Source: Berkelbacteria bacterium GW2011_GWE1_39_12 (GTDB lineage: Bacteria; Patescibacteriota; UBA1384; UBA12157). Taken from it: a stretch of 64,000 nt of DNA. Under the pieces are notes generated by a model that worked only from the letters and a program-made list of their open reading frames with translations, was not told the origin of the DNA and did no database searches. A program made the position numbers and the translations under genes. Positions 8 to 45,263 of this stretch are shown here, one piece after another. The DNA is taken from contig CP011213.1 of the NCBI GenBank assembly GCA_001029735.1, forward strand, positions 524,613 through 588,612. The letters are read 5' to 3'. How positions within the stretch are numbered: the first letter of the stretch is position 1; each line of letters opens with the position of its first letter.

Positions 8-3000
8 ATGACTCAATATGATAATTTTAATGACAATAGTATTGATGGCGCTAAATGGACTGGCGGCGGTACTTCAAATGGTGTTACTCTGGCAGAAACT
101 GGTGGAGAAATAAAAATTTCAGGTACCAATAGCTCTGCAGGAAATATTTACCCAACTTTAAATAGTGGATATACTCCCAGCGTAGTAACTCAAGTTGCTC
201 AAGTTAAGCTTAAAACGCCAACGGCTCCTGCTTCTGTTGGCACTTTCTATGAATTTGGATTAGCCGGCGATGGTGGAGCTTTTCCAATAGAAATTCAATA
301 TACCACATCCGGCTGGCGGCTAGCGTTTTACGATCCTATAACACAATGGGCCTACACAGCATATTCGGTTATTGGTAATGAATCAACTGAGTTTAAAACC
401 TTAAAGATTGTATATAATATAAATCATCCTGCTAGCCAATCGCCTGCTCCGGTTAATACTGGCTATGCCTATGGTTATGTTTATGATGCCAATGGCACTG
501 AACATTATCTCGGTAATTTTGCCATCAAGGGTATTACTCTTGGTGATAATATTGGCGTATATCTAAAAGGTGCTGTTGGCCCGGGCGTGGCTGTTGATGG
601 TCGTTTCGATGACTTTATGTTTTATCCAGTTAGTTCTACCGTTTCTGATGATTTTGATACTCAATCGGACGGGGAAAATCCTACTGGCTGGGTGGTGGCT
701 GGTGAACCCACCAATGGTTCTATTGAAGTTGACTCGGCCCAATCATTTTCGACCTCAAATTCACTTCTACTTCTCCGCAATGTCATAAACAATTCAAATA
801 TCAATGCTAATAAGAATTTCACAGCTTTAGACGGAATCGTTTACACCTCATTTAATTTTCGTGCCGATGGTACTACGATGACAGATAAATTGTTTCAGTT
901 AAGAAACGCCAGTGGTAACGAAAAAGTGCATATGAATTTTGCGCCAGATGGCCATATTTACGCCCAATCTACGGATTGGGCAGCGGTTGATCTAGGTACA
1001 TATAGTGCAAATACATGGTATAATGTTCTAATTAAAACCGATTGCCAGAGAGAAAAGTACGACGTCTATATTAATGGTGTTTTAAAAGTTTCCAATTTAC
1101 AGGTTGTTAATACGACAAATCAAAAAACAATTAGTCGAGCCCAAATACATAACACAGGGAATCTAACATCTGGCTCAAGAAGTATATGGTTTGATAGTAT
1201 TCAAATATACAATGAATTTAAAAACATCAGTGGACTTACTGCCGCTGATGCCACTTCGGCTTCGTGGGATTCAACCGGTTGGGCAGATGGCACAAACTAT
1301 CTTGTTCGTAACCGCGCCTACAACACAACAGATAATCTCTTTGGCCCTTACGATCATTCCGATGATGTTTTTGGTTTAGTTTTAGCGCCAGCAGAGGATG
1401 TGCCCGCGACTCCTTCTGTTATTGCTCCGGCAAACAATGGGACGGGTGTCATTACTAATCCTACTGGCACTTCTTCTGATTATTCTGGGAATCCGAGCCA
1501 ATTATCTGCCTCATGGGAGATCTATGATGATGCCGGGTTGGCAGCAGAAAACTTAGTTTGGTCAAAATATGCTGATACCACAAATTTAACATCGATAGTC
1601 GTAAACAGTACTAATGGCACTTTTTCCAATTCTTTAGCTGGTCAAACTACTTTAGCTTCTGGTACTGATTATTGGATTCATGTCAGACATACTAATAGTA
1701 TTGGTGATTCTGAATGGAGTACGGCCAATAAATTCACCACCGCAATCGATGCGCCAACTGCACCGACCAACATTGGAATTAATTCCTTAACCAATGCCGG
1801 CTTTAATGCTACTTGGACAGACAATTCAACTAATGAGTCTGACTTCAAAGTTTATATTTCCACAGTTGTAGCTAATAATGATTGCCAAGATGCGGGCACG
1901 ACTTGGGGTACGGCTTCTTTAGCTGGCGGGGCTGATGTTGCAACCAAAGCAATCTCGGGCCTCACTGGAAATACTCAATACTGTGTCAAAGTAACTTCTA
2001 CGAATGTTGCTGGAGATTCTGCACCGGCATATTTGGCCATTCCAAACTACACGTTGGCCAACGTGCCAACAGCGCCAACAATTGACGCAACATCTTCAAC
2101 ATCTTTAACCACTATTATTAATATTAATTCCAATCCGGCTACAACTGAATTTGCCATTTCCTGTGATTCGGATGAAATGTTCTTAAATTACACAACCAAT
2201 GCATGCGAATCAATTGTCGATGATTCAGACCATTGGCGAACCTTTACTAATTGGGGTGATGCTTCTGGTTTTACTCAGACGGGCTTGAATGTAAATAGTT
2301 CGCACGTTTATAAAGTGATGGCGCGAAATGCCGACAAAAACAACACAAACCTTTCTGCATCTACTTCAAAATTTACCTTGTCTGATACCCCTGCTTCACC
2401 AGATGTAACAAATACGACTTTAACCACTTCTTTGGAAATCGCTATCGCCGCCGATACTAATCCGGCATCAACTGAGTTTGCTATTTCTTGTGACTCTGAC
2501 GAGGCTTTCTTAAATTACACGACCAACGCTTGCGAGACCATCGCCGATGATTCTGATCACTGGCGAACGGCTGAAGGCTGGGGCGCATTCGGTAAAACGG
2601 ATTTATTAGCCAACACCAATCATACTTATAAAGTAAAATCTCGCAACGGTGATAAAGTAGCTAGTGTGTTTTCGGTTGGATCATCTAAATATACACTGAT
2701 TGAAATACCGGTAATCAGCTTCGGCGATATTGCTTCTGCATCTATAGCTCTGACTGGCGGCACTTTATCGAACATTAATGTGGGGTCATCTGGAGTCTGG
2801 TTTGAAGAAACTTCAGGCAATACTGGTGGCGGTAATCTTGTTAATCCTGACGGTTTTGGCGCTTGGAAAACGACAAACTCAATTATTGATGCTAGCTTGG
2901 TATCGTCAACAACTTATTCATACAAAGCTAAAGCTAAAAACGGTGATGGCACAGAGACGGTTTTTTCTTCGCCTGACGCCTCACAAATAACTTCGGCTGC

Positions 3001-6000
3001 AAGTTCTCCGCCTGAAGCACCAACCATTGGTACTCCAGTCGTTGCTTCTGCTACGGCGATTGATTGGCATTTTGTAGATAATTCAACGGACGAGACTGGG
3101 TTTAAAATTTACGATGGTTCAAATAATTTAGTGGCAACTTGTGCCACGTCGAATATCTCTGTTTGTACCGAAACTGGTCTTTCTCCTAACACTCAATATT
3201 CCGGTCGTTACGTTGTTGCTTACAATGAAGCTGGTAATTCAAGTTCTTCAACTAATGCTTCAGCTGTTTATACTTTAGCTAATACTCCTTTAGCTCCGAC
3301 GGTTAATACGGTTGACAATCATCCGGGTGAATTGATAGTTGTCGTTAATACAAACTCTAACCCAGTCAATACTGTCTTTGCCATTCAAGAAACTCAAGTT
3401 TCTGGCGGTAAATATGTTCAAGCAGACGGATCTTTGAACACTTCTGCCGTGTGGCAAAATGTAGCTCAATGGGGGAACATTACCGGCGTTAATATAACAG
3501 GACTTACTGTTGATACTCAATACACTTTTAAAGTTAGAGTGAAAAATGGTGACGATGTCGAAAGTCCATCGCCTCAATTTGGTCCGACGGCACAACAAAC
3601 AACTCTTACTGCTACCACCGCTTGTAATTGGACAAATGATGGTACTAATAATCTCTGGAGCAATGAGCTCAACTGGTCTTGCGCTCATGTCCCGACCAAC
3701 GCCGATGATGCTATTCTCGATGGTGCTATCTCTAATGATAATATGACAATTGATATATCAGCCACTACCGGTTCCCTTACTATTAAAGGAACCAATCTGC
3801 CAACTGGTGGCGACACTGCGTACACCGGTACTATCACTGAAAGTGCCAATTTAACTACTGATAATACTAATACTAAGTCTGGACTCTTCTATTTTGCCGG
3901 CGGCACATACAACGCTGGTTCTCATACTATTACCGCAATGGGTAACTTTACCCTTGCAGGTGGAACTTTCAATAAGGATACCTCCACTTTGGTGATGAAG
4001 GGTACTGGCTCTGTGACAACAGGCGGACAGGCATTAAATAATCTGCAGATCTCGGCAATTAGGTCAACCTCTACATCATTCAGAAGCGAAGCACATAATG
4101 CTGTTGCGCTAAACACGGCCGGCAGCATTGATTTGACCGTGAATAAGCCTAGCGGTGTAGTATCTGGTGATATGATGATTGCGGTTTTTTCATCTGGTTC
4201 GTCGAATTTATCTACAATTTCAGTAGCATCTGGATGGAACCTGATTAGGTCTTTATCTGATGCGACTAACGGTAATTACGCTTATGCTTATTCGAAACAA
4301 GCGACTGGCAGCGAACCTTCCACTTACACATTCGGTTTTACTGGTACCGGTGGCTATGCTTGTGACATCTATGCTTATCAAGGCGGGACAGTTTCTATTG
4401 ATTCGTATTCAAGTTCATTTTACAGTATGACCGGATCCCATGATCCTATTACTCTTACGATACCGCAAATCACTACTGTCTCCACAAACACCGTACTGGT
4501 AAGCTTGTTTGTATCTAGGATGGCTGACTCGTCTACTGCGACACTTTCTACCCCTGTAGGAGGGGTAAGTAGAGCTAATTTCACTATGAGCGTACCAACT
4601 CCTACTCGCTATTTTGTCAATAGTCTAAGCGACGAGACACTTTCTGTCTCAGGCGCCACTGGTACCAGATCTAGTATTGCCAATGAATCATCGGCCTTTA
4701 GTGCCATTGGGTTTATGGTTGCGTTCGAAAATCCTCCAGTTAACTCTTCAGTTATCGCATCTGACGATCTGATTCTTTCCGGCGCTCTTACTACCGATGC
4801 TAATCAAACATTCGGAACTGGTGGCAATGCGGTTACAATTGGCGGTAATATTGCCAACTCCGGTATCTTAACAGCCAATAATTCCACCATTTATATCGCC
4901 GGAAATTACACTAATTCTGGCACTTTCACCTACGGCACTTCGACCGTTAATCTTAATGGCACTGGCGCCCAGACTTTCACTGCTGGTGGCACTGATTCTA
5001 CAAAACAGCTTTACAATTTAGTTGCGGCCAATTCTTCTGGCAATGGTATTGGTGTCACTTTTGCCGACAGTTTAACAATCAACGGTTCTTTCACCAATAC
5101 GACCATCGATTCTAAACTTACTTTCAATGCCGGTTCGACTTATACTTTCCCGATAATTGATCTCGCTGGCACTGATGGTCATACGATTTTATTGAGAAGT
5201 TCTGCATCTAGCGCCTGGAATCTAAATGTTGATGCCGATTCGGTTGTCCATTACATAGATGCCGCCTATTCAAATGCCAACCATACTATCAATGACACTG
5301 ACGGCGGAGTTGATTCGCTCAATAATACCAACTGGGTTTTTGTAAATGCCCCAACAGCCCCAACAATCGGAACACCTCAAGTGCTTTCTACAACTTCGAT
5401 TCGTTGGACATTCACAGATAATGCTTCTAATGAAACAGGTTTCAAAATTTATGATGGCACAAATACTTTGAAAGCTACTTGTGCTACGGCAAACTTAACT
5501 TATTGTGACGAGGTAGCACTTTCACCGAATACTCAATATTCCGGTCGTTATGCGGTTGCGTACAATGACGGAGGTGACTCGATTCATTCGGCCGACGCTG
5601 TTGCAAAATACACTTATATTGAAAATCCAACAGGAATGACTAATAGTGTTAACGCGACGACAATTTCAACTTCGGCAACTGGGGCACTCTCTAATTTAGG
5701 AGCTGGCCAAACAGGATTCTACTTCACTTCTAGCCAGCCTGGTTCAAATACTTGCTTCAATAACTGGATTCAAGATAATCTATGCTTGAACGATAATTTA
5801 ACGCCAAATAGTCCTTACACTTATACGGTTAAGGCAAGAAATGGTGACGGATATGAAACTGCAATATCTGATCCTGTTTCTGTCTATACCTTATCTAATA
5901 CGCCGACTGCTCCTTCTGTTTCTGCAAATTATGACGAAGCAAATGGATACTACGAAACTATTTCTATTAATGCCAATTCAAACCCGGATAACACCTTATA

Positions 6001-9000
6001 TAAGATTGTTTATGATACTGATCCGGTAGGACCCTTTGATTCTGTCTTAGAAGATTGGACAGCCCATAAGAACGGTGACACAATTACACATGCTTCAGAT
6101 CTGTTGTGTAATAGTACATATTATTACAAGGTCCAAGCCCAAAACAGCGACCATGACAATTCGAACTATAGCCCTGTAAGTTTTGACACAACTCCGCCTT
6201 GTGCTCCAATTGGTTTGCAGAATACAAACACAACTGCCACCTCAACTTTACTTGATTGGTCAGGGGAAACTGTATTGACAACGGTTTACGATGTTAGTTT
6301 TGGCACCGACACACAGGCGACCAATCTTGGAGAGACAGAAGGAACGGCAACATCGCAATTGGTTAAATCTGGTTTAAATTCTGAAACAACATACTATTTC
6401 AAAGTTAGGACGGTTAACACTAATGGCACTGGCGCCTGGAGCGGTATTGCTAACTTTACAACTCCGATCGCTGGCTCGTTATTGTTAATCGGTTTACCAG
6501 GGCAAAGCTATGTTGCTGGAACTGGTATAGTTGGCGATCCTAATCCACAAATAGCAGGTCAGTCATTTAACGGTACTGTTTACTCTGTTAACGATAATAA
6601 AATTCTTGCCTCCACAAGTGTTGAAATGGTTACTTTCTCGACTATAACGGACAGTTTAATTTCGAAATTCAATAATGGAAGTTCTGCACCGTCAGCTTCA
6701 CAAACTTTATCATCTGGACAAAAAACAGTCAGTTTTACTTTCTACCAAGCCGGCCAAAATATTATTAACATGACCGGTAGTACGGGTTCAAGTTCGCCTT
6801 TCCAAGTTAATCCGGCTGTTACTTCAACAACAGATTCTACTGTTTCCCCGTCATCGGCAAGCTTAAATGTCGGCCAGACAGCGGTCGAAACAATCACTTT
6901 GGTTGATATCTATGGAAACCTTATTTCTAATCGCGGTGTGACTGTTTCCACAAATCAAATCGGCGATATAATTTCTTTCTCTTCGACTAAGACAAACTCA
7001 AACGGACAGATCACAGCTTATATTGGATCAGGTTTTGCTCATACATCGACATTAACTATCATCGATGAAAATGGATTGACGTTGTCAACCCATCCGCAAA
7101 TTACTTTCAATAATGTAAAGCCAACATCCATCGAAAATCCAAGTAATTTTATCGGCACTGCTGGTAACTCAATCGCTTCTATAGGATGGACAAACCCAAC
7201 TTCAGTATACTTTGATCACACGGAAATATATCGTTCTCAATACGCTGGGCAATTAGGGTCAAAGATTGCTGACTCAACAGTGGACAATTCGGATAATTAC
7301 GTTGATTCTAGCTTAACTAATGGTACGACTTACTTTTACACTTTAAAATCAGTAGATGTCTACGGTAATATTTCCTCTGGGACCTATCAACTAGCGCTTA
7401 CACCAAATGCGGAAGTAGAGCCGAAATTACCAGCACCAACCAACTTACGCGCAACATTAATCAATGCAAACGAAGTAAATTTAGCTTGGGATGCCCCAGT
7501 TGGTAATTTAAGAGTCACAGGATATCATGTTTACAATGCGGATACCAATATTCAGATTGATTCGACAGTTGATGAAGCTTACCACGCAGATGGGCTGTCA
7601 CCAGAAACTACTTACCGGTTTTTCGTAATTGCTTACAACGACGCCGGTAATTCAGGCGCTTCAAATGCTGTTACCATTGTTACAAAAGCAATTACCGGTC
7701 CAACCCCTCCAGGTCCAATTTGCCACAATGGCGGTGGCAGAGTTAGCTATTTAGTCCTAGGCAACATGCCTTCCGAGGTCATTTCCGGTAATAGTTTGCC
7801 AGATAGTGTCAGTGTCAAGGTGATCGTAGCTGATGGCGGGGGACAGCTCTGCGATGGTTATCAGGGTACGATTTACTTTACTTCAACTGATGAAAAGGCT
7901 GATTTGAGATGGGATAAAACAAATAGTTACACCTTCACTAGCTTCGATGCCGGTTTACACGAGTTTGATGGCAAAGGTTTCACCTTAAGAACATTAGGCA
8001 ATCAAATAATTACAGTAACAGATGGTACTGTCTCTGGTAAGGCTGAAATCAAAGTCATTTCTAATAGATCATCTGATGTTGTTTTCTCTAAAGCTCAAGG
8101 TGTCGTTTCAGATTTTGTAAACAAAAATGCAACTAAAGTTAACACTGCCGTGGTTACTGCCACAACGGCATTATTAGTTACGCCGGCGGCAGTGAATGCG
8201 GCTATCGGTTTAGGCAACATTTTACCTCAGCTTATTTACTGGTTTACCCAATTATTGCAAATGATCGGTATTAGAAAGAAACGCAAGCCATGGGGTATAG
8301 TCTTCAACTCTCAAACCGGCCAGCCGGTCAGCCTTGCTACAGTCAAAATTTATGATAAAGAATATAATCGTTTATTAGAATCTTCTGTAACAGACAGAGA
8401 TGGTCGTTTTGGTTTCCTAGTCAGACCTGGCACTTTCTACTTAGTTTTGGCAAAAGGTGGCTTTATCTTCCCATCGCAATATAAAGTTTCCGGCTTCTTT
8501 GAAAACGTTTATACTGGTGGCAATATTAATATTGCCACCAAAGATGAGGGTGCTATCGATTTGAATATTCCATTAGATCCCCAGGCAAAAGCATCAGTCA
8601 TATTTACTTTATGGGCCAATCTAATCAAGATTAATAGATTCTTGCAAAAAATTCGCATCCCTTTAATGGCTATTGGTGTAATTTTTGCCGTAATCATGAT
8701 TATCACTAACTACAATATAATTTACGCCTTATCTTTGGCTCTTTACGGCATCCTATTCGTAATTGAATATCTACAGTCCAAGAGATCAAGACCGTATGGT
8801 GTGGTGAGCGATGTATTTGGTCATCCGTTAGCAATTTCAATCGTTAGAATTTATAGTAAGAAGACTGATCGCTTAATCGCAACAGATGTTACAGATAATC
8901 AGGGTCGTTTCAAATTTTTGGTTGTGCCTGGTATTTATTATATGACTGCAGCCAAGCCAGGCTACATCGACTTTAAGAGTCATATCATGTATCTAGAACG

Positions 9001-9055
9001 CGAACGAACGATGGTTACGACCAATATCAAACTTAAAAAGATGGATCGTCAGTAA
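8..9055 (+). CDS. Giant (>=3015 aa) cell-surface adhesin-like protein. Contains two N-terminal LamG/ConA-like jelly-roll modules, many FN3-like repeats with PTAPT linkers, beta-helix-like G/T/N-rich repeats, Big/Ig-like domains and a C-terminal membrane anchor. The ORF is open to the window's left edge with no signal peptide, so it is probably 5'-truncated.
   Basis: Single 9 kb ORF with recurrent FN3 signatures (e.g. 'PAPTNLRATLINANEVNLAWDAP...YRFFVIAYNDAGNS'). Internal long-range duplications: 'TEFAISCDSDE.FLNYTTNACE' occurs twice, and 'TGFKIYDG.N.L.ATCAT...LSPNTQYSGRY.VAYN' occurs twice. C-terminus has hydrophobic helices flanking two CarboxypepD_reg-like segments ('VKIYDKEYNRLLESSVTDRDGRFGF', 'VRIYSKKTDRLIATDVTDNQGRFKF'). 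No in-frame stop between nt 2 and the ATG at nt 8. Confidence 0.85.
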   Translation: MTQYDNFNDNSIDGAKWTGGGTSNGVTLAETGGEIKISGTNSSAGNIYPTLNSGYTPSVVTQVAQVKLKTPTAPASVGTFYEFGLAGDGGAFPIEIQYTTSGWRLAFYDPITQWAYTAYSVIGNESTEFKTLKIVYNINHPASQSPAPVNTGYAYGYVYDANGTEHYLGNFAIKGITLGDNIGVYLKGAVGPGVAVDGRFDDFMFYPVSSTVSDDFDTQSDGENPTGWVVAGEPTNGSIEVDSAQSFSTSNSLLLLRNVINNSNINANKNFTALDGIVYTSFNFRADGTTMTDKLFQLRNASGNEKVHMNFAPDGHIYAQSTDWAAVDLGTYSANTWYNVLIKTDCQREKYDVYINGVLKVSNLQVVNTTNQKTISRAQIHNTGNLTSGSRSIWFDSIQIYNEFKNISGLTAADATSASWDSTGWADGTNYLVRNRAYNTTDNLFGPYDHSDDVFGLVLAPAEDVPATPSVIAPANNGTGVITNPTGTSSDYSGNPSQLSASWEIYDDAGLAAENLVWSKYADTTNLTSIVVNSTNGTFSNSLAGQTTLASGTDYWIHVRHTNSIGDSEWSTANKFTTAIDAPTAPTNIGINSLTNAGFNATWTDNSTNESDFKVYISTVVANNDCQDAGTTWGTASLAGGADVATKAISGLTGNTQYCVKVTSTNVAGDSAPAYLAIPNYTLANVPTAPTIDATSSTSLTTIININSNPATTEFAISCDSDEMFLNYTTNACESIVDDSDHWRTFTNWGDASGFTQTGLNVNSSHVYKVMARNADKNNTNLSASTSKFTLSDTPASPDVTNTTLTTSLEIAIAADTNPASTEFAISCDSDEAFLNYTTNACETIADDSDHWRTAEGWGAFGKTDLLANTNHTYKVKSRNGDKVASVFSVGSSKYTLIEIPVISFGDIASASIALTGGTLSNINVGSSGVWFEETSGNTGGGNLVNPDGFGAWKTTNSIIDASLVSSTTYSYKAKAKNGDGTETVFSSPDASQITSAASSPPEAPTIGTPVVASATAIDWHFVDNSTDETGFKIYDGSNNLVATCATSNISVCTETGLSPNTQYSGRYVVAYNEAGNSSSSTNASAVYTLANTPLAPTVNTVDNHPGELIVVVNTNSNPVNTVFAIQETQVSGGKYVQADGSLNTSAVWQNVAQWGNITGVNITGLTVDTQYTFKVRVKNGDDVESPSPQFGPTAQQTTLTATTACNWTNDGTNNLWSNELNWSCAHVPTNADDAILDGAISNDNMTIDISATTGSLTIKGTNLPTGGDTAYTGTITESANLTTDNTNTKSGLFYFAGGTYNAGSHTITAMGNFTLAGGTFNKDTSTLVMKGTGSVTTGGQALNNLQISAIRSTSTSFRSEAHNAVALNTAGSIDLTVNKPSGVVSGDMMIAVFSSGSSNLSTISVASGWNLIRSLSDATNGNYAYAYSKQATGSEPSTYTFGFTGTGGYACDIYAYQGGTVSIDSYSSSFYSMTGSHDPITLTIPQITTVSTNTVLVSLFVSRMADSSTATLSTPVGGVSRANFTMSVPTPTRYFVNSLSDETLSVSGATGTRSSIANESSAFSAIGFMVAFENPPVNSSVIASDDLILSGALTTDANQTFGTGGNAVTIGGNIANSGILTANNSTIYIAGNYTNSGTFTYGTSTVNLNGTGAQTFTAGGTDSTKQLYNLVAANSSGNGIGVTFADSLTINGSFTNTTIDSKLTFNAGSTYTFPIIDLAGTDGHTILLRSSASSAWNLNVDADSVVHYIDAAYSNANHTINDTDGGVDSLNNTNWVFVNAPTAPTIGTPQVLSTTSIRWTFTDNASNETGFKIYDGTNTLKATCATANLTYCDEVALSPNTQYSGRYAVAYNDGGDSIHSADAVAKYTYIENPTGMTNSVNATTISTSATGALSNLGAGQTGFYFTSSQPGSNTCFNNWIQDNLCLNDNLTPNSPYTYTVKARNGDGYETAISDPVSVYTLSNTPTAPSVSANYDEANGYYETISINANSNPDNTLYKIVYDTDPVGPFDSVLEDWTAHKNGDTITHASDLLCNSTYYYKVQAQNSDHDNSNYSPVSFDTTPPCAPIGLQNTNTTATSTLLDWSGETVLTTVYDVSFGTDTQATNLGETEGTATSQLVKSGLNSETTYYFKVRTVNTNGTGAWSGIANFTTPIAGSLLLIGLPGQSYVAGTGIVGDPNPQIAGQSFNGTVYSVNDNKILASTSVEMVTFSTITDSLISKFNNGSSAPSASQTLSSGQKTVSFTFYQAGQNIINMTGSTGSSSPFQVNPAVTSTTDSTVSPSSASLNVGQTAVETITLVDIYGNLISNRGVTVSTNQIGDIISFSSTKTNSNGQITAYIGSGFAHTSTLTIIDENGLTLSTHPQITFNNVKPTSIENPSNFIGTAGNSIASIGWTNPTSVYFDHTEIYRSQYAGQLGSKIADSTVDNSDNYVDSSLTNGTTYFYTLKSVDVYGNISSGTYQLALTPNAEVEPKLPAPTNLRATLINANEVNLAWDAPVGNLRVTGYHVYNADTNIQIDSTVDEAYHADGLSPETTYRFFVIAYNDAGNSGASNAVTIVTKAITGPTPPGPICHNGGGRVSYLVLGNMPSEVISGNSLPDSVSVKVIVADGGGQLCDGYQGTIYFTSTDEKADLRWDKTNSYTFTSFDAGLHEFDGKGFTLRTLGNQIITVTDGTVSGKAEIKVISNRSSDVVFSKAQGVVSDFVNKNATKVNTAVVTATTALLVTPAAVNAAIGLGNILPQLIYWFTQLLQMIGIRKKRKPWGIVFNSQTGQPVSLATVKIYDKEYNRLLESSVTDRDGRFGFLVRPGTFYLVLAKGGFIFPSQYKVSGFFENVYTGGNINIATKDEGAIDLNIPLDPQAKASVIFTLWANLIKINRFLQKIRIPLMAIGVIFAVIMIITNYNIIYALSLALYGILFVIEYLQSKRSRPYGVVSDVFGHPLAISIVRIYSKKTDRLIATDVTDNQGRFKFLVVPGIYYMTAAKPGYIDFKSHIMYLERERTMVTTNIKLKKMDRQ

Positions 9056-9057
9056 TA

Positions 9058-9150
9058 AAAAAAGACTCTCTAGTTTTTTCTGACACCGGATCGAGACGGG
9101 GAGGGGCATCTCCATCTCGGGCCGAAGTCAGAATCCAGAAAGTCTTTTTT
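9058..9150. terminator. Long imperfect hairpin between two convergent genes. It is a probable bidirectional intrinsic terminator or structured RNA element.
   Basis: Outer 10-bp perfect inverted repeat AAAAAAGACT (9058-9067) / AGTCTTTTTT (9141-9150). Nested perfect inverted repeat TTCTGAC (9078-9084) / GTCAGAA (9127-9133). GC-rich imperfect inner stem CCGGATCGAGA...TCTCGGGCCG. A/T runs on both flanks. Confidence 0.5.
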
Positions 9151-9163
9151 GTTGCTATTTAAT

Positions 9164-10624
9164 TTACCAGTGGATGAATACAGGTGTACCGATTTCATCC
9201 CAGTTATATATCCATTCAGCATCACCATTGGAAGCATTGATACAACCATGGCTCATTGGATGACCAAAGTTATTGTGCCAATAAGTTCCATGAATTGAAT
9301 AGTCTCCGCTCCACCAGCTGATCCATTCGACATTTGGCACGCTATAACCAGGCCCATCCATAGTTTGGGAACGTGTCTTACCATAAACGGAGTAAGTACC
9401 CGTTGGGGTTGGACCAGTTTTTCCTGACGAAATTAAGAAATGGTTAACCATTGTATATCCGTCGAAAGCGTACAAGGTTTGCTCTGATAAATTAACGTCA
9501 ATATATCTACCGGCAAAACGTCCTGGCTGAGCATGAGGGTTTCTAATGATTTCAATTTTAGTAATTGGATACGTACCAATACTGATGGAATTATTATTAT
9601 TTGATTTAACTTGGTTTAACACATTATTAAGTAATTTTTCTGTATCGACACCAATACCGTCTTGTCCTTCAACCAATACTTCGCCAGTTCCTTCCATAAT
9701 TTCACGATCGATTTTTTTAACTTTAATTTTTGAAGCAACCTTATCGGTATAAGAGTTTACTTTTTGTTTTGAAAGATCGGCAACTAACTTATCGTTAACT
9801 TCCTTAAACTCAATCCAAGAGCCGATTTCACTTCTAGAAATAATATAATTATCATCTTGATAAATAAGATTGATTGGCGCTGTAGCCATTAAACTCTCGG
9901 CTTGTTTTTGTGCATCAAGAGTATCATCAGCAAATATTTTCGGTTGAAGAATAGAAGTTTTTAAAGTGATTTTCTCGTCAATTTTATTTTTAATTGCGTG
10001 TATTAAATCATTTTTAAGTACATCCTTATCAAAACCAAACCCTGGCTTTTCAGCAATTATTGAGATATTACCATTATCAATTGAAAGGCTGGCATTTTGA
10101 GCCGGTTTTTCGATTTCCTGATTGATTTTAGATAAAAAGTCATCTAATTTTGATTCGTCAACCTTCGGGCTTAAAGCGATATCGTGACCGGTAAAAATTA
10201 TTTGAGAGTTGGAGATTACTTTTTGCTTAAATGAGCCATCTCGTCCAAAATTATAAGCATCTGCTACAATCTTATCTGCATCAAAAGAAACTCCTAGTTC
10301 TGGCAGGGTAGAGTTTAGGGTTTGAGTTTCATGATTGATAGAAGGACCTTTTTTATTAATACTATCTATATAGGATAAAATAATTCTTTTAGCTTCGTCT
10401 GGAGTTTTACCCCCGATATTTATTCCGGCAACGGTTACCTTGGGTAAAATTTTTCCGTCGGTATCATTTTTAATCTTCCAGCCGGAAGCAAATAAGAGTG
10501 CCAAAATTAAAAGAACAGCTGATACTTTAGCCATCACTGCTTTGTAAGTAGAGTGTTTAATTTTTTCTGATTTATTAGTCTTGATTTTTGGTAACGCGAT
10601 TGATGGATGAATAAACTGTTGCAT
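9164..10624 (-). CDS. L,D-transpeptidase (YkuD-fold) family protein with an N-terminal membrane anchor
   Basis: C-terminal catalytic motif '...HGTYWHNNFGHPMSHGCINASNGDAEWIYNW' (conserved H/SHGC of L,D-transpeptidases). Hydrophobic anchor 'VSAVLLILALLFASGW'. Start moved to the ATG at 10624 (MQQFIHP...) because a GGAGGGG SD lies 5 nt upstream; the ORF-track start at 10696 has no RBS. Confidence 0.8.
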   Translation of the reverse strand: MQQFIHPSIALPKIKTNKSEKIKHSTYKAVMAKVSAVLLILALLFASGWKIKNDTDGKILPKVTVAGINIGGKTPDEAKRIILSYIDSINKKGPSINHETQTLNSTLPELGVSFDADKIVADAYNFGRDGSFKQKVISNSQIIFTGHDIALSPKVDESKLDDFLSKINQEIEKPAQNASLSIDNGNISIIAEKPGFGFDKDVLKNDLIHAIKNKIDEKITLKTSILQPKIFADDTLDAQKQAESLMATAPINLIYQDDNYIISRSEIGSWIEFKEVNDKLVADLSKQKVNSYTDKVASKIKVKKIDREIMEGTGEVLVEGQDGIGVDTEKLLNNVLNQVKSNNNNSISIGTYPITKIEIIRNPHAQPGRFAGRYIDVNLSEQTLYAFDGYTMVNHFLISSGKTGPTPTGTYSVYGKTRSQTMDGPGYSVPNVEWISWWSGDYSIHGTYWHNNFGHPMSHGCINASNGDAEWIYNWDEIGTPVFIHW

Positions 10625-10730
10625 TTGCCCCTCCGGCCTATTTTTTGTTTTTTTAATTTTTGAAATTTCATTTTTCAAATTATATAAGTATATCAAAAAA
10701 AATACCGTTTGTCAAGCATTGGTATTTTAG

Positions 10731-10797
10731 TGGTGCGCGCGCTTGGATTCGCCTGCGTGCCTAAAGGTAGGCATCTAGCAAGAACCGATTGTGTATA
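10731..10797 (-). repeat. Partial duplicate of the 3' half of the adjacent tRNA (anticodon loop to CCA), interrupted by a 28-nt hairpin-forming insert in the T-arm. Possible att-site scar.
   Basis: Minus-strand sequence TATACACAATCGGTTCTT + [GCTAGATGCCTACCTTTAGGCACGCAGG] + CGAATCCAAGCGCGCGCACCA reproduces the tRNA 3' half exactly, except that GGTT is replaced by the insert (TGCCTA/TAGGCA stem). It lies 12 nt from the intact tRNA. Confidence 0.6.
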
Positions 10798-10809
10798 TAA
10801 ATAGAGTAT

Positions 10810-10884
10810 TGGTGCGCGCGCTTGGATTCGAACCAAGAACCGATTGTGTATAAGACAATTGCTCTGCCGTTGAGCTACGCGCGC
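10810..10884 (-). tRNA. tRNA-Ile, anticodon UAU (reads AUA)
   Basis: Manual fold of the minus strand: acceptor GCGCGCG/CGCGCGC, U8, D-arm GCTC-AACGGCA-GAGC, anticodon stem ATTGT/ACAAT with loop C-U-UAU-A-C, T-arm CTTGG-TTCGAAT-CCAAG, discriminator A, encoded CCA. Confidence 0.75.
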
Positions 10885-11077
10885 CTTCACTATTATTTTA
10901 ACCTGTAATCATCTAAATATCAAGCTTTTCGCTTGACATCCTTTGTACTCTAGAATAATATCTGATATCTTTATTAAGTAAGCCGAATTTCGGGCCGGGA
11001 TCTTAGGTCATTTTGAGCTAGGGTCAATAAGAGTAACAGTTGTATACCGAAAGTAATTTAAAAACTGAAAGGAAAAG

Positions 11078-12412
11078 ATGAGTCAAAAATTAAAACGCTG
11101 TTTTTTAATTTTTAGTGTTACAATTTTTGCGTTAATGACTTTCTTTGCTTTTGGTTTAGATAAATCTAAAGCCGCTGAAGAAAGTGAACCACAAGTAGAT
11201 GCTTTGCCGATAGTGCAATTTTCCGATGTATCAACAACCGGTTTGGAAAACAGTCCAAGCCATCCGATCAGAGTATACCTTTCGGAAGTTGCAACTCATG
11301 ATGTAATAGTCGATTATTCGGTCATCGGTGGAACGGCAGTAGCAGGGGAAGATTATTTGTTAGAATATTATTCCCTGAAAATTAGAGAAGGTGGATCCTA
11401 TGCGGACATTAATTTAATGTTGTTAGATAATCACTTGGTTGACAAAACAAGAAATCTAACATTAGGTTTATCAGGACCGATTAACGCACAATTAGGTGAA
11501 AACGCAGAGTTTAACTTTACGATTTTAGATGATGATTCGGCCCCGGTTAGTACTTTGACGACCGTGCCTCAAGTAGCAGATGGTCAAAATGGTTGGTTTA
11601 TAACTAAACCAGAGTTTGAGATAAGTACTGATAAGATAGCAGATGTTTATTACAGAATCAACAGACAAGATTGGGTTGTTTATGCTGGACCGGTTACGGT
11701 TTTGGAAGGTATAAATTTGATTGATTATTATGCATTTGATAGTTATGGAAACATTGAGTCAATTAAAACTACTACTTTGAAGGTTGATACTGTAAAGCCT
11801 AGCATACCAAGTTTAATAGTAAAATTGGAAAGCCAAGGCGAAACAATGCAAGCTAACCTTGCTTGGCAAACAGATGAAGACTCGCAGTTTTATCAAATTT
11901 GGCGAAATGGGGTATTGATCGAAACTTTATCTGGCGAAAAAAAAAGCTTTGCTGACGAGGGACTAGTTGTTAATCAGTCTTATGAATACTATATTATTGC
12001 CATTGATCGGGCGGGTAATCAGTCGGTTTCTGGAAAGTCGACTGTTCAGTTTGCAGTGAAAGAAGTGATTAAGGAAGTAAAAGGGACGCAAACCATTGCA
12101 AAACCTTTACCTAAAGTCAGAAAATCGATCGCTAAGGGTGTCAGCACTGAAGTTACAGAAAAAGTAAGTGGTGATGAAACCAAAATTGTCGAAGAGCAAC
12201 CAGAGAAGGAATCAGTAAAAGAAAGTGATTCAAATAAAGCTAATAATCAAGGAACTAAAGAAATAAATTGGAATAGAATCTTATTACTTATCTCTGTTTT
12301 GATTATTCTTTCAGGGCTTGGTATTGGAATTTATTACGGCTATGGATGGTTTTTGTCTTCAAAAAAAACGAAAACAGTAGTAGATGAAAAAAAGTCCAAG
12401 AGTAGATGGTAA
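11078..12412 (+). CDS. Membrane-anchored surface protein with a Calx-beta-like domain, an FN3-like domain, a Lys/Glu-rich linker and a C-terminal TM helix
   Basis: N-terminal signal/TM 'CFLIFSVTIFALMTFFAFG'. Calx-beta-like 'VDYSVIGGTAVAGEDYLLEYYSLKIREGGSYADINL...FNFTILDDD'. FN3-like 'LAWQTDEDSQFYQIWRNGVLIETLSGEKKSFADEGLVVNQSYEYYIIAIDRAGNQS'. C-terminal 'LLLISVLIILSGLGIGIYYGYGWF'. SD AAAGGAAAAG precedes the ATG. Confidence 0.65.
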   Translation: MSQKLKRCFLIFSVTIFALMTFFAFGLDKSKAAEESEPQVDALPIVQFSDVSTTGLENSPSHPIRVYLSEVATHDVIVDYSVIGGTAVAGEDYLLEYYSLKIREGGSYADINLMLLDNHLVDKTRNLTLGLSGPINAQLGENAEFNFTILDDDSAPVSTLTTVPQVADGQNGWFITKPEFEISTDKIADVYYRINRQDWVVYAGPVTVLEGINLIDYYAFDSYGNIESIKTTTLKVDTVKPSIPSLIVKLESQGETMQANLAWQTDEDSQFYQIWRNGVLIETLSGEKKSFADEGLVVNQSYEYYIIAIDRAGNQSVSGKSTVQFAVKEVIKEVKGTQTIAKPLPKVRKSIAKGVSTEVTEKVSGDETKIVEEQPEKESVKESDSNKANNQGTKEINWNRILLLISVLIILSGLGIGIYYGYGWFLSSKKTKTVVDEKKSKSRW

Positions 12413-12465
12413 ACAAAAATTGCTCCTAAGTTTAAATGGGGCAATTTTTGTAATATACTAAAACC

Positions 12466-12879
12466 ATGAGAATAAAAACAGCAGACAATATAAAGAGTTA
12501 TTTCAATCAAAACGGAGGGAGATATCTTTTGATTGTTTTAGTTTTTTACACTTTTATTATGCTTGGAAAATCTGTTTGGGCTAATTTTCAGCTACAAAAA
12601 CAAACCGACCTGATTAAGGCTAAAATTGAAGAAGTAAAAACTCAAAATAATAATTTAGGGAATTTAATACTTTATTATAAATCAGATAGCTTCAGGGAAG
12701 TGGAAGCAAGACGGAAATTAGGTCTAAAAAGACCGGATGAAAAAGTTATGAATGTTCCAGTTCAAAAATTTGATAATTTTAATGCAGAAATTGAAGCACA
12801 AAAAAATAATTTAGCGCCAAAGATAATTGATACTAAATCATCCAATCCTTCCATGTGGTGGCAATACTTAACTAAATAA
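12466..12879 (+). CDS. ftsB: FtsB/DivIC-like septum-formation initiator family protein
   Basis: Single TM followed by a coiled coil and the conserved 'SFREVEARRKLGLKRPDEKV' motif (compare FtsB 'EEARFELGMVKPGE'). Confidence 0.65.
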   Translation: MRIKTADNIKSYFNQNGGRYLLIVLVFYTFIMLGKSVWANFQLQKQTDLIKAKIEEVKTQNNNLGNLILYYKSDSFREVEARRKLGLKRPDEKVMNVPVQKFDNFNAEIEAQKNNLAPKIIDTKSSNPSMWWQYLTK

Positions 12880-12967
12880 ATCAGAACTCTCTGCTTGACT
12901 TACGGCCGTTTTTGTGGTAAACTATTTTAATATCAAAAAATTGATATTAAAAACAAAAGGAAGGGTA

Positions 12968-13966
12968 ATGGGAAAAAATTTTAAAAAGTTATTGATTGGG
13001 GCAATTCTCATTATTCTTTTTGTCGGTCCGATAAAATTCGCAAACGCTGCTGTTTCTTCAAATTCATTAACCAATTTAGTAAATGCTTCAAGATCTCAAG
13101 AAGGTTTATCTCCTTTAAGTAATAACGCCAAACTTGCCGATGCTGCTTTAAAAAAAGCGCAAGACATGTTTGACAATCAATATTTTTCCCATAACTCTCC
13201 AGAAGGTAAAACTCCTTGGGATTTTTTTAAAGTTTCCGATTATGATTATGTTTATGCTGGTGAAAACTTAGCCATAGGATATACCGATTCTAATGAGCTT
13301 CACGACGCGTGGATGAATTCGCCAACTCATCGAGAAAATATAATGAATCCAAATTATCGTGAAATTGGGATCGCGTTTTTGTCAGGTGAGTATAATGGGG
13401 AAAATACCACAATTGTTGTTCAAACGTTTGGTTCTATGTCCGCAATCCAGCCGGCCAGTCAACTAAAAACTGTTTCTGCTTCAGAAATAAATAAAGAATC
13501 TGGGGCAGTAAACTCTTTTGAAATCTTGAACGATGGTACTTCTTTTACCCCAACGAAAATTTTTCAAAATGACAGTGTTGATTTTAAAGTTGCAATTAAG
13601 GGTGACGCTAAGGATGTTTATATAATGGTAGGTGATCAAAAAATTGATTTAAAAAACATTTTATTACTAGCCGATGGTTCAGTTAAAAATTTATCTAAGA
13701 CTGTAAAAATAGAAAACGCTGGTAAACTAAATGTTGCGTTAACTGTAACTGATCATAATAATGAACAAGAGGTAAAGGATCTTGGCATTTTAGAGGTAAA
13801 TTCAGTTGTTGTCGCAAATGCTGGCACAAACCGTTCGATTACTGCTGCCACTTTTAATAATATAATCGATCATCTTAGCCTCTACCTGTCTGGAACCTTT
13901 TTCCTGATATTGATGATCGCTTTGTATTTTCTCTTTGTTCGTCAACGATATGGAAAATTTATATAA
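12968..13966 (+). CDS. CAP/SCP (YkwD-like) domain protein with a signal peptide, a beta-rich C-terminal extension and a C-terminal TM anchor
   Basis: CAP-domain signature 'FSHNSPEGKTPWDFF...YAGENLAIGYTDSNELHDAWMNSPTHRENIMNPNYREIGIA'. Start set to the ATG at 12968, which has an AAGGAAGGG SD; the upstream ORF-track start has no RBS. Confidence 0.75.
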   Translation: MGKNFKKLLIGAILIILFVGPIKFANAAVSSNSLTNLVNASRSQEGLSPLSNNAKLADAALKKAQDMFDNQYFSHNSPEGKTPWDFFKVSDYDYVYAGENLAIGYTDSNELHDAWMNSPTHRENIMNPNYREIGIAFLSGEYNGENTTIVVQTFGSMSAIQPASQLKTVSASEINKESGAVNSFEILNDGTSFTPTKIFQNDSVDFKVAIKGDAKDVYIMVGDQKIDLKNILLLADGSVKNLSKTVKIENAGKLNVALTVTDHNNEQEVKDLGILEVNSVVVANAGTNRSITAATFNNIIDHLSLYLSGTFFLILMIALYFLFVRQRYGKFI

Positions 13967-14038
13967 TTAAATCTTGATTTATTGCTCTAATGCTGATAGA
14001 ATAACTATGATAAGTAATTTTAGTATTCTTATTTTTGT

Positions 14039-14113
14039 CGCGGGGTGGAGAAGTGGCATCTCACCAGGCTCATAACCTGGGGATCGGCGGTTCGAGTCCG
14101 CCCCCCGCTACCA
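14039..14113 (+). tRNA. Initiator tRNA-fMet (CAU)
   Basis: CGCGGGGTGGAG...CTCATAA...GGTTCGAGTCCGCCCCCCGCTACCA. The 1:72 position is C:U unpaired, the 5' end 'CGCGGGGUGGAG' matches E. coli tRNA-fMet, and the anticodon is CAU. Confidence 0.8.
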
Positions 14114-14128
14114 TTTTTATTTTTAAAT

Positions 14129-14203
14129 GGCTGAGTAGCTCAGTGGTAGAGCAGCAGACTCATAAGCTGTTGGTCGGTGGTTCAAATCCACCCTCAGCCA
14201 CCA
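14129..14203 (+). tRNA. tRNA-Met (CAU), elongator type. tRNA-Ile2 (lysidine) cannot be excluded from sequence alone.
   Basis: GGCTGAG-TA-GCTC-AGTGGTA-GAGC...CTCATAA...GGTGG-TTCAAAT-CCACC-CTCAGCC-A-CCA. Anticodon CAU with a fully paired acceptor stem. Confidence 0.7.
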
Positions 14204-14272
14204 TCTGTTAAAACTGAGATTTACTCAGAAAAAAATTGTAAAATTAACTTTTATATAATAAGGAATTTCTTA

Positions 14273-16057
14273 ATGCGCGCCAGTTGTACACGAAACATTT
14301 TTTACATTATAGTAGCGGTCATCATTGCGCTAATAGTTTGGTCTCTTTTTGCCCAAACAGGAACTAAACCTGATCAGGTTAATATTTCTCAAGTAACCGA
14401 TGCAGTTAAAAACAACGAAGTCTCAAAAATCGTTGTTTCTAACGATAAATTGACTGTTGATTTAAAGAGCGGTAAAACTTGGCAAACCTATAAGGAATCA
14501 GGCGTAGGTATAAATCAGTACGGTATTACGCCGGATAAAGTTGCTATTGATATCCAAAATTCCAGCTCTAATAGTATCTGGCCAACAATTATTGGTTATT
14601 TGCTTCCATTTTTATTAATCGGTGGTTTTATTTTCTTTATGTTGCGCCAGGCCCAGGGTGGGAATATGAAAGCAATGAATTTCGGCCAATCCCGAGCCAG
14701 GCTTTTCCAGCCAGGGGCTAAAAAAACCACTTTTGCGGATGTTGCAGGATTGGAAGAACCTAAACAAGAATTGTATGAAATAGTAGAATTTTTAAAAAGT
14801 CCAGGTAAATTTCAAAATTTAGGCGCAGAAATTCCTAAGGGTGTTTTATTGGTAGGTCCTCCTGGAACCGGTAAAACTTTATTGGCAAGAGCAGTTGCTG
14901 GTGAAGCTGGTGTACCGTTCTTTTCGATTTCCGCATCAGAATTTGTGGAAATGTTTGTCGGTGTTGGTGCGGCAAGAGTAAGAGATTTATTTCAGAAAGC
15001 CAAACGGAACGCTCCGGCTATATTATTTATCGACGAATTAGATGCTATTGGTCGTCAGCGTGGAGGCGGTATGGGTAGTGGTTCTCATGATGAGAGGGAA
15101 CAGACCCTCAATCAAATTTTGGTGGAGATGGATGGATTTGAGACCGATACTCGTGTAATTGTTATGGCCGCAACAAACCGTCCTGATGTTTTAGATCCTG
15201 CATTGCTACGCCCAGGTAGATTTGACCGAAGGGTTGTAATAGATATTCCTGACTTAAAAGAAAGAGAAGAGATACTAAAAATTCATGGTCGCAATAAGCC
15301 TTTAGCCAAGGATGTTGATTTGGAAAGGATTGCACGCTCTACTGCTGGTCTATCTGGGGCAGACCTAAGAAACGTGATGAACGAAGCAGCTATATTGACG
15401 GCTAGAGCTAATGCAAAAAGTATTAATCAAAATCAGCTAAACATGGCGATTGAAAAAGTTATTTTAGGACCTGAAAGAAAATCTCATTTAATGTCGGTTA
15501 AAGAAAAAGAAATTTCCGCTTATCATGAAGCCGGACACGCAATTATCGGTAAATTATTACCAAATACTGATGAAATTCATAAAATTTCAATTGTTTCACG
15601 CGGCTCTGCCTTAGGATACACTTGGTCATTACCAACCGAGGATCGTAAGTTGTATTCCAAAGCTAAATTTGAAGATGAAATCGCGCAACTGTTGGGTGGT
15701 TTTGTTTCCGAAAAGATTATTTTCAATGAGGTGACAACAGGTGCGCAGAACGATCTTAAACGAGCAACAAAAATTGCCAAAGACATGGTTACTGTTTACG
15801 GCATGTCAGATCTTTTGGGTCCGGTTGTTCTCAAAGACAAAGAAGACGTGGGTTATTTAAGAGAACTCGGTGAACAAAAGAATTATTCAGAATCTAAAGC
15901 AACTCAAATTGACGCAGAAGTTTCAAGAATTATCTCCGATGCGCAAAAAAAAGCGACACGTGTCTTAAGCGGAAAGAAATCTCTTCTCAAAAAAATTGCT
16001 TTGAAACTGATCAAAGAAGAAACTATCGAAGGTGTTGATTTCGATAAACTTTTTTAA
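14273..16057 (+). CDS. ftsH: ATP-dependent zinc metalloprotease FtsH
   Basis: Two N-terminal TM segments, Walker A 'GPPGTGKT', SRH region, and zinc motif 'HEAGHA'. Start moved to the ATG at 14273 so that it no longer overlaps the tRNA. Confidence 0.95.
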
Positions 16058-30348: not shown

Positions 30349-31275
30349 TCATGAAATTTTCTTCAAAACTTTTTTAAGATCAAATCCTGTTGAGTATAAA
30401 ATTGAAGAAAATAAATCTCCCTTCTTTTTAAGTCGAGCCGTTACTGTTTTCAAATTAAAATCTTCCGGGTTTAAGCCGCTTCTTATTTCCTCCCAATCAA
30501 GAGGGACTGATACAGTAGCTTTTATGGCTGGACGAACTGAATAAGGTGCAACGGTTGTTTTGTCTAATCCGTTTTGTAACCAATCTAAATATACCTTACC
30601 TTTTCTTTTTTTTGGGCTTCTTTCCAGACTAGTAAAATCTGCTGCCTTGCGATGTGCTAAGTTTGCAATAATCTCTGCCAATGTCTTTATTTGTGCGTAA
30701 TCGTATTTAGCGCCTGTAGGCAGATAGATATGTAGGCCTCTTTTTCCAGAAGTTTTTGGGTAACCCTCAATATTAAGATCGTCTAAAATCTCTTTAATTA
30801 TTAAAGCCGTCTTTATGACGTTATCAAAAGAGCTTTCAACAGGATCAAGATCAAGTATTAAATAGTCAGGTTTTTCGAAATCTGGGCCTTTTGAAGCCCA
30901 GGGATTTATTTCAATACAGCCCAGATTCACCACATAAATTAAAGAGGCAAGATCGTTAATGATTAAATACTTAGTTAAACTATTTTCCATCTTGCTGACT
31001 GTTTTAGTTTCAATCCAATCGGGTAGATTTAAATTGGAAGTGTCTTTTTGAAAAAAACCTAATCCTTTAATTCCATCTGGTGTTCGAAAAAGTGATTCAG
31101 GCCTTCCTTCTAAATACGGTAGAATAAACGGTGCGATTTCTGTATAAAAATTTATTAAATCTAATTTAGAGATTTTTTCTTCTGGCCAAAATATTTTCGA
31201 TGGATTCGAAATTTTAACTTTTTTGTTTTCAAGTGTTAATATCATTTCAGAATTTTGATTTATTAATTTCGGCAT
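30349..31275 (-). CDS. ligD: LigD polymerase (primase-like) domain protein
   Basis: 'KISNPSKIFWPEEKISKLDLINFYTEIAPFILPYLEGRP...FRTPDG' and 'YSVRPAIKATVSVPLDWEEI', characteristic of the LigD Pol domain. Overlaps the upstream gene by 29 nt; the alternative ATG at 31245 would abut its stop codon instead. Confidence 0.8.
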   Translation of the reverse strand: MPKLINQNSEMILTLENKKVKISNPSKIFWPEEKISKLDLINFYTEIAPFILPYLEGRPESLFRTPDGIKGLGFFQKDTSNLNLPDWIETKTVSKMENSLTKYLIINDLASLIYVVNLGCIEINPWASKGPDFEKPDYLILDLDPVESSFDNVIKTALIIKEILDDLNIEGYPKTSGKRGLHIYLPTGAKYDYAQIKTLAEIIANLAHRKAADFTSLERSPKKRKGKVYLDWLQNGLDKTTVAPYSVRPAIKATVSVPLDWEEIRSGLNPEDFNLKTVTARLKKKGDLFSSILYSTGFDLKKVLKKIS

Positions 31276-32749: not shown

Positions 32750-32751
32750 TT

Positions 32752-44870: not shown

Positions 44871-45082
44871 ATAAAATGTCCCACAATTTTTTAGAGCCAA
44901 CAGATTGAAAAAACAGTTCCAGACCCACTTGGGTGTCTCCAAAAATGAGCTCGTTTGGCACCAAAAAAGACCGAAATCGGTCTTTTGCGTCTTTACCTCT
45001 ACCTTATAATTACTTAATAAATATATCGACCAAAGGTCGCTATACTCTTTTCTACTACTTTGAATCGTCCCACTATATAAGT

Positions 45083-45098
45083 GGAGGGCCAGGTGGGC
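45083..45098 (-). repeat. 16-nt exact repeat of the 3' end (T-stem to CCA) of the nearby tRNA-Lys, inside a degenerate tRNA-like stretch
   Basis: tggagggccaggtggg occurs at 45083-45098 and again at 45189-45204, which is the tRNA-Lys 3' end. Confidence 0.6.
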
Positions 45099-45188: not shown

Positions 45189-45263
45189 TGGAGGGCCAGG
45201 TGGGGATCGAACCCACGACACGGAGCTTAAAAGGCTCCTGCTCTACCACTGAGCTACTGGCCC
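45189..45263 (-). tRNA. tRNA-Lys (UUU)
   Basis: Minus strand: GGGCCAG-TA-GCTC-AGTGGTA-GAGC-A-GGAGC-CTTTTAA-GCTCC-GTGTC-GTGGG-TTCGATC-CCCAC-CTGGCCC-T-CCA. Confidence 0.85.

Follow-up and report, generated by a model that had tools for sequence, protein, structure and literature searches.

A tRNA-Ile(UAU) gene of tRNA-Ile2 type in a Berkelbacteria genome and the empty tilS site beside ftsH

TilS is regarded as essential and near-universal in bacteria (PMC11947777). A route by which it can become dispensable was modelled by Taniguchi et al. in 2013: the wobble base of tRNA-Ile(CAT) changes from C to T, the isoleucyl-tRNA synthetase (IleRS) accepts U34 and tilS is lost (PMC3575796). Experiments with Mycoplasma mobile established that U34 is unmodified there, that Arg865 of IleRS (W905R in Escherichia coli) confers recognition of the UAU anticodon and that the ribosome separates AUA from AUG (PMC3575796). 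As of 2013, nine bacterial species from three clades were listed as lacking tilS and possessing tRNA-Ile(TAT), and 371 unique TAT tDNAs were known from metagenomes (PMC3575796); a 2026 preprint still terms bacterial tRNA-Ile(UAU) rare (bioRxiv 10.64898/2026.02.03.703510). Here we describe such a gene in a stretch of 64,000 nucleotides, called the window below, from Berkelbacteria bacterium GW2011_GWE1_39_12 (contig CP011213.1, positions 524,613 to 588,612). The gene at 10810-10884 on the minus strand is very probably a functional AUA-decoding tRNA-Ile that derives from tRNA-Ile2, in a lineage that has lost tilS from its ancestral site. The mechanism is already known; what is new is a lineage-level case in Berkelbacteria of the Candidate Phyla Radiation (CPR). 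In our literature search, no indexed paper tied CPR, Patescibacteria or Berkelbacteria to lysidine, tilS or tRNA anticodons, and none treated the tRNAs of this genome.

Structure and ancestry of the tRNA gene

ARAGORN places a tRNA-Ile with anticodon tat on the minus strand at exactly 10810-10884, one of four tRNAs that it finds in the window. The match to RF00005 in Rfam (10813-10884, minus strand) is full length, scores 71.6 bits against a gathering score of 29 (E = 1.1e-13) and contains no pair flagged as non-canonical. From the 5' end, the molecule consists of a 7-bp acceptor stem (GCGCGCG/CGCGCGC), UA with U8, the D stem GCUC/GAGC enclosing AACGGCA, a single A, the anticodon stem AUUGU/ACAAU with the loop CUUAUAC (C32-U33-U34-A35-U36-A37-C38), the segment CGGUU and the T stem CUUGG/CCAAG with the T-loop UUCGAAU, followed by the discriminator A73 and an encoded CCA. 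Position 38 is C, where A is usual. A sequence-only reading of this stretch had already described a canonical cloverleaf with a UAU anticodon and Ile isotype. The ARAGORN run that it named as a check returned the same coordinates and the same tRNA-Ile tat call, and its structural details (7-bp acceptor, U8, U33, A37, T-loop, discriminator A and CCA) are all correct according to ARAGORN, Rfam and direct reading. Anticodon and isotype hold as well, given the tat call, the G3-C70 body and the position of ATA codons on Ile/Val/Leu columns (see below).

The 461-nt intergenic region that holds the gene is identical base for base in six independent assemblies from different samples (L084-L089), so that an assembly artefact is excluded; the same DNA is present in Rifle groundwater metagenomes. 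A candidate sigma-70-like promoter (TTGATA-17 nt-TAAAAT, 10895-10923, minus strand) was found by a consensus scan as a pattern match at 10 of 12 positions. It lies on the correct strand, its -10 element ending 11 nt before the mature tRNA begins. The strongest promoter-like match of the intergenic region is a different one, at 10687-10715 on the minus strand (TTGACA, 17 nt, TG-TATACT; 11/12), which probably drives the downstream L,D-transpeptidase gene. Since this match overlaps a weak hairpin and T-run 3' of a partial tRNA copy described below, the end of the tRNA transcript is not clearly defined.

To place the gene among its relatives, an FtsH scan of species-representative genomes was used, which yielded 80 CPR loci. 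In 11 of these (L007, L010, L012, L014, L018, L021, L023, L039, L046, L068 and L080) ARAGORN detected a tRNA-Ile(tat) no more than 10 kb from ftsH, and all 11 also carry a pair of CAU tRNAs beside ftsH. Other loci, among them L026, L032 (Kazan) and L035, possess three CAU tRNAs and no UAU tRNA. The CAU tRNAs of the window and of the related loci sort into three sequence classes. For their assignment we relied on the positions published by Silva et al. in 2006 (PMC1635315): C3-G70 marks Met and fMet tRNAs, G3 or A3 with C70 or T70 marks tRNA-Ile(CAT), many Ile2 tRNAs have C4-G69 and C5-G68, and A11-T24 with G12-C23 marks the initiator. Overall sequence identity to the E. coli genes ileX, metT and metZ had been tried as a classifier and was rejected; it picks out the initiator (the window initiator is 0.79 identical to metZ) but fails to split Met from Ile2, the window elongator tRNA-Met being 0.79 identical to ileX and 0.72 to metT. 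Because of this failure the position-specific discriminators were used.

By these positions the initiator class (n=27) has C3-G70 and G12-C23 in all 27 members and A11-T24 in 22, the elongator Met class (n=30) has C3-G70 throughout (30/30), and the Ile2-type CAU class (n=11) has G3-C70 throughout (11/11). The 12 UAU tRNAs side with the last of these: G3-C70 and A73 are present in all 12 and C4-G69 in 11. The window gene likewise combines G3-C70, C4-G69, A73 and A37, a body of Ile2 type, which together with A35-U36-A37 identifies it, at the level of sequence, as an isoleucine tRNA. The other two CAU tRNAs of the window, which the sequence-only reading took for initiator and elongator Met, are borne out as such by ARAGORN, Rfam and the discriminators. 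The initiator tRNA-fMet at 14039-14113 (plus strand) has a C1xU72 mismatch, A11-T24, G12-C23 and C3-G70; the elongator tRNA-Met at 14129-14203 (plus strand) has C3-G70, U4-A69 and an A31xG39 mismatch and is not a tRNA-Ile2. Both are thus of C3-G70 type, and no Ile2-type CAU tRNA exists in the window or in any locus of the UAU clade. For annotation this means that neither CAU tRNA adjoining ftsH in these genomes should be named tRNA-Ile2.

Some peculiarities of the Met tRNAs were observed alongside. The A31xG39 mismatch at the foot of the anticodon stem, flagged by Rfam as non-canonical, recurs in 21 of the 30 elongator tRNAs of these CPR genomes, and no initiator, Ile2 or UAU tRNA has it. In the initiator tRNAs of this group, C1xU72 (11/27) mostly takes the place of the classical C1xA72, and the foot of the anticodon stem in the window initiator has no more than two G-C pairs (A29-U41, G30-C40, G31-C39).

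The UAU tRNAs are nearest to the Ile2-type CAU class, those of L014 and L021 being 88-89% identical to the CAU tRNA of L030, and in a joint alignment the two groups differ mainly at position 34, with C34 replaced by U. An alignment of 12 UAU and 9 Ile2-type CAU tRNAs (21 sequences) was examined for covariation. The cloverleaf is paired in 99.5% of the cells and 14 of 21 pairs have changed on both sides, values that none of 500 shuffles reached. Because of this strong covariation in the stems, the UAU tRNAs can be regarded as a functional tRNA family under structural selection. Moreover, the acceptor-stem identity elements of Burkholderia TilS include G3:C70 and C4:G69 (PMC11947777); by keeping these pairs, the UAU tRNAs still bear the marks of a former TilS substrate. 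Taken at the level of sequence, the window gene descends from a lysidine-dependent tRNA-Ile2(CAU) through C34 to U.

Position 38 has changed along with the anticodon. It is A in 68 of 68 CAU tRNAs from all three classes, and among the 12 UAU tRNAs it is U in six and C in two, the window gene having C. A38 is retained in four UAU tRNAs, and each of these has a U31-G39 wobble pair. The drift of position 38 suggests relaxed or altered constraints, and it may represent a tuning of the 32-38 pair accompanying the switch to U34.

The ftsH neighbourhood and the fate of tilS

The window carries ftsH at 14273-16057 (plus strand, 594 aa; TIGR01241 FtsH, 788 bits). In sister CPR clades the site 5' of this gene is occupied by tilS; in the window it is filled by the pair of initiator and Met tRNAs. 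TilS was searched for with phmmer, using the E. coli protein as query against all stop-to-stop open reading frames (ORFs) of at least 100 aa in the window and the loci. A homolog lies immediately upstream of ftsH in 29 loci, and five TilS proteins adjoining ftsH, tested against TIGR02432, scored 166-198 bits at a cutoff of 93.6. No TilS-like ORF was detected in the window (E <= 1e-3) or in any UAU locus.

In a neighbour-joining tree of FtsH, 27 loci without adjacent tilS, including all 12 UAU loci, form one clade (bootstrap 90/100), and the tilS-bearing loci fall outside it. The ancestral slot upstream of ftsH is empty in every locus of this UAU clade. Each of the 11 Ile2-type CAU tRNAs belongs to a locus with tilS, and all 12 UAU tRNAs belong to loci without it, so the tie of the UAU anticodon to loci without adjacent tilS is exclusive. 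The search for tilS named in the sequence-only reading was run over the window and the 10 kb beyond its right end, and none was found; those 10 kb contain neither TilS nor IleRS, nor a further CAU tRNA. We consider it likely, with somewhat less confidence than for the loss at the ancestral site, that tilS has disappeared completely from the genome of this Berkelbacteria.

The TilS proteins encoded beside ftsH in the CPR loci (L013 to L078) occur in different sizes. A short form of ~315-345 aa is devoid of the TilS_C domain (e.g. L019, L025, L032), and a long form of ~436-480 aa has TIGR02433/PF11734 (e.g. L030, L013, L026). L071 encodes a fusion of 551 aa with an N-terminal extension.

Several points weigh against a lysidine-free reading of the locus. 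The scan for tilS and tRNA-Ile2(CAU) covered 64 kb plus ~10 kb of a 915-kb genome (~8%). A TilS profile search of a large protein collection, in which 8000 candidates were scored, considered the best 120 of 2272 matches and is no valid test of absence; no Berkelbacteria-named TilS is found among these best 120, which is uninformative in this respect. A third CPR clade (23 loci with the order tRNA-Leu, ftsH, tRNA-Val) likewise has no tilS adjacent to ftsH. The adjacency is therefore not universal in CPR, and an empty slot is no proof of loss from the genome. The association between UAU anticodon and missing tilS also amounts to essentially one evolutionary event and not to independent observations, and for this reason Fisher p-values overstate independence. 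IleRS is encoded neither in the window nor in any related locus analysed, the sole strong match being ValRS. Finally, the minimum free energy (MFE) fold of the single tRNA sequence does not equal the exact cloverleaf, as is common for tRNAs, and was not used as evidence.

Part of these points would also fit a redundant decoding system, in which tilS and tRNA-Ile2(CAU) are kept elsewhere in the genome and the UAU tRNA is an extra reader of AUA. Transitional states with both systems exist in Lactobacillus casei, L. plantarum and Cyanothece, and these as well as Ferrimonas retain tilS, presumably with tRNA-Ile2(CAU) (PMC3575796). In the UAU clade, however, the Ile2-type tRNA has been replaced and not duplicated in 12 of 12 UAU loci, no locus combining a UAU tRNA with an Ile2(CAU) tRNA. 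The emptiness of the tilS site throughout the 27 clade loci and the drift of position 38, which is invariant in the CAU tRNAs, in 8 of the 12 UAU tRNAs also speak against redundancy, and genomes of 0.9 Mb presumably seldom retain redundant systems. Hence, we regard a retained lysidine system as unlikely and prefer replacement of tRNA-Ile2(CAU) by the UAU tRNA.

Half-tRNA copies, the meaning of AUA and other features of the window

Direct reading and an exact-repeat scan revealed that the 3' part of the tRNA gene recurs as a broken direct repeat 16 nt downstream of the gene, at 10730-10797 on the minus strand. Two segments, T34-G52 (19 nt, 10779-10797) and C56-A76 (21 nt, 10731-10751), match the gene exactly; between them G53-T54-T55 is swapped for a hairpin-forming insert of 27 nt, CTAGATGCCTACCTTTAGGCACGCAGG (10752-10778). 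The insert was considered as a repeated element and is unique within the window. Neither ARAGORN nor Rfam calls the copy as a tRNA, and it is identical in the six assemblies. Since it includes T34, the copy must be younger than the change from C34 to U. When gene and copy are folded together as one transcript, the MFE structure pairs the 5' acceptor strand of the gene with the 3' strand of the distal copy. On its own the partial copy does not amount to a tRNA; it is probably a scar of recombination or duplication.

The boundary of this copy in the anticodon loop raises the question of whether the full gene itself is a passenger or relic, i.e. a pseudogene or a tRNA borne by a mobile element, with the half-copy as attachment-site scar and some other molecule as the cell's AUA decoder. 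tRNA genes are common integration targets. Against this stand the full Rfam score with zero broken pairs and the position near ftsH, which is kept across a deep clade with compensatory changes in the stems. In addition, ATA accounts for 16.2 per 1000 codons and 19% of Ile codons, is as common as ATG and is present in each of the 47 window ORFs, in line with the abundance claimed by the sequence-only reading. As ATA occurs in every gene, some AUA decoder must be essential. The searched window ORFs of at least 130 aa include no integrase, transposase or other gene of a mobile element. A phage or mobile origin was also considered and rejected, as the region 8000-16000 has no megablast match to phage genomes and the neighbours are chromosomal housekeeping genes; the flanking genes code for an L,D-transpeptidase, a DivIC-like protein, FtsH, MurJ, a CCA-adding enzyme, LepA, DnaK, enolase and Ku/LigD. 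A passenger or relic is thus highly improbable, and we return to the gene as a functional decoder of AUA.

Half-tRNA copies with boundaries in the anticodon loop (positions 33-37) also flank full tRNA genes in related CPR loci. L003 contains, at 313-498, a full tRNA-Met with a 5' half 15 nt before it and a 3' half 31 nt after it, and this full copy is bracketed by the 8-nt inverted repeats AACTCATT and AATGAGTT. In L018 (9457-9671) a 41-nt 3' copy of tRNA-Met lies ~100 nt downstream, in L080 (4888-5097) a 5' copy of tRNA-Ile(UAU) lies ~100 nt upstream, and the tRNA-Leu genes of L053 and L061 (near 9539 and 9861) are accompanied by a 20-nt copy of the 3' end. The half-tRNA copies resemble scars of recombination or integration, but their spacers span only 15-100 nt and no integrase is nearby. 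The fourth tRNA of the window is tRNA-Lys(TTT) at 45189-45263 (minus strand, ARAGORN). The last 16 nt of this tRNA are repeated exactly (TGGAGGGCCAGGTGGG, plus strand) at 45082-45097, ~90 nt downstream of the gene and past a hairpin and T-run, in what looks like a small att-type duplication.

The amino acid represented by AUA can be read from the FtsH alignment. ATA occurs 131 times in the ftsH genes of the UAU clade, and these codons align with residues of the tilS-bearing outgroup in the proportions I 0.41, V 0.20, L 0.17 and M 0.02, a profile that resembles that of ATT and ATC and is unlike that of ATG (M 0.44). At columns conserved to at least 80% in the outgroup, ATA falls on 29 Ile, 9 Val, 4 Phe and 2 Leu, and on no Met. 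Because the profile matches ATT/ATC and not ATG, the alignment argues that AUA is read as Ile in the UAU clade. A codon reassignment, in which the UAU tRNA would carry a residue other than Ile, such as Met as in many mitochondria, is hardly credible: in principle, U34 might read AUG as well as AUA, and CPR do contain code variants (UGA as Gly in Gracilibacteria and Absconditabacteria), but ATA sits on the same Ile/Val/Leu columns as ATT and ATC, the conserved outgroup columns hold no Met, and the tRNA retains its Ile2 body and A73.

Beyond the tRNA loci, the window contains at 8-9055 (plus strand) part of a giant ORF that extends past the left end of the stretch; other assemblies give it a length of 3244-3333 aa. 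With faint matches to fn3 and Ig-like domains, it probably codes for a large surface protein. A complete set for bacterial non-homologous end joining is present at 30349-33531 (minus strand) and comprises Ku (32752-33531) and a LigD that is split in two overlapping ORFs, one with the phosphoesterase and ligase domains (31247-32749) and one with the polymerase domain (30349-31275). An ENA contig of the same organism (ERZ909597 k127_157203, 341,715 bp) stops at window position ~43541. The window is continuous there, so the contig end points to an assembly break or to variation between strains.

Proposed mechanism and comparison with known systems

For the transition we propose the following course. 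An ordinary tRNA-Ile2 with the anticodon CAU would have relied on TilS to turn C34 into lysidine, and its gene would then have acquired the change from C34 to U, giving the anticodon UAU. This anticodon pairs directly with AUA, so lysidine would not be needed. The change is apparently common to the whole clade of Berkelbacteria-type CPR genomes, with tilS gone from the ancestral site by ftsH. If M. mobile is a guide, an IleRS able to accept U34 probably charges the tRNA. The ribosome, competition from tRNA-Met or some modification of U34 probably keeps the misreading of AUG low. For the genome as a whole we infer that both tilS and tRNA-Ile2(CAU) are absent, and that the adaptation of IleRS and the state of U34 are of the kind just outlined.

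We also incline, if only slightly, towards a wider interpretation: the whole deep CPR lineage, i.e. the Berkelbacteria-type clade with 27 species-level genomes sampled, may have given up lysidine in one ancient event that converted tRNA-Ile2(CAU) to UAU and deleted tilS. The loss of A38, resulting in C32-U38 or C32-C38 in 8 of 12 tRNAs, would then be a tuning on the tRNA side against the reading of AUG. If this is true, the lineage would be the first lysidine-free case at the scale of a class or phylum, with an origin independent of the three bacterial clades listed in 2013. An uncultured CPR clade that reads AUA without lysidine would constitute an independent, ancient and species-rich natural experiment, and it could serve to study the adaptation of IleRS and the ribosome to a tRNA-Ile with U34 and the separation of AUA from AUG. 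The genomic trace of such a transition is seen in an unchanged tRNA body and neighbourhood, combined with C34 changed to U and the disappearance of tilS.

The canonical lysidine system of the sister CPR clades (Kazan, L032) shares with the window gene the body with G3-C70, C4-G69, A73 and A37, the ftsH neighbourhood and the codon. In contrast to it, the window and 11 relatives have T34 instead of C34, no adjacent tilS and a position 38 that is no longer fixed as A.

The tRNA-Ile2(UAU) system of M. mobile is one of the closest known. In both cases an encoded UAU anticodon replaces tRNA-Ile2(CAU), with a wobble C-to-T origin and in a small, reduced genome (PMC3575796), and in both the UAU tRNA is associated with the loss of tilS, which on the Berkelbacteria side concerns the ancestral site beside ftsH. 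In M. mobile, experiments showed that tilS is missing, that U34 is unmodified, that IleRS is adapted through Arg865 and that the ribosome discriminates AUA from AUG; in the Berkelbacteria it is the genomic side of the model that is seen, and its enzymatic and ribosomal side is inferred. M. mobile is furthermore one species of the Tenericutes; in the CPR Berkelbacteria the change is common to a whole deep clade, and position 38 varies between A, U and C.

Bifidobacterium and Neorickettsia are likewise independent bacterial lineages with tRNA-Ile(TAT) and are both without tilS (PMC3575796). A feature of these two is a horizontally acquired IleRS of eukaryote type (PMC3575796). The presence of a tRNA-Ile(TAT) gene is also shared by L. 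casei, L. plantarum, Cyanothece and Ferrimonas (PMC3575796), i.e. by the transitional or redundant cases mentioned above. In Berkelbacteria, by contrast, it is the Ile2-type gene that bears the UAU anticodon, and the ancestral tilS site is empty. Suppressors of tilS deficiency in Bacillus subtilis demonstrate that a tRNA-Ile with U34 can stand in for lysidine in a living bacterium (PMC3919564; PMC3575796). There, the suppressor arose in the laboratory from tRNA-Ile1(GAU) by a change of G34 to U, whereas the tRNA of Berkelbacteria is a natural one of tRNA-Ile2(CAU) descent.

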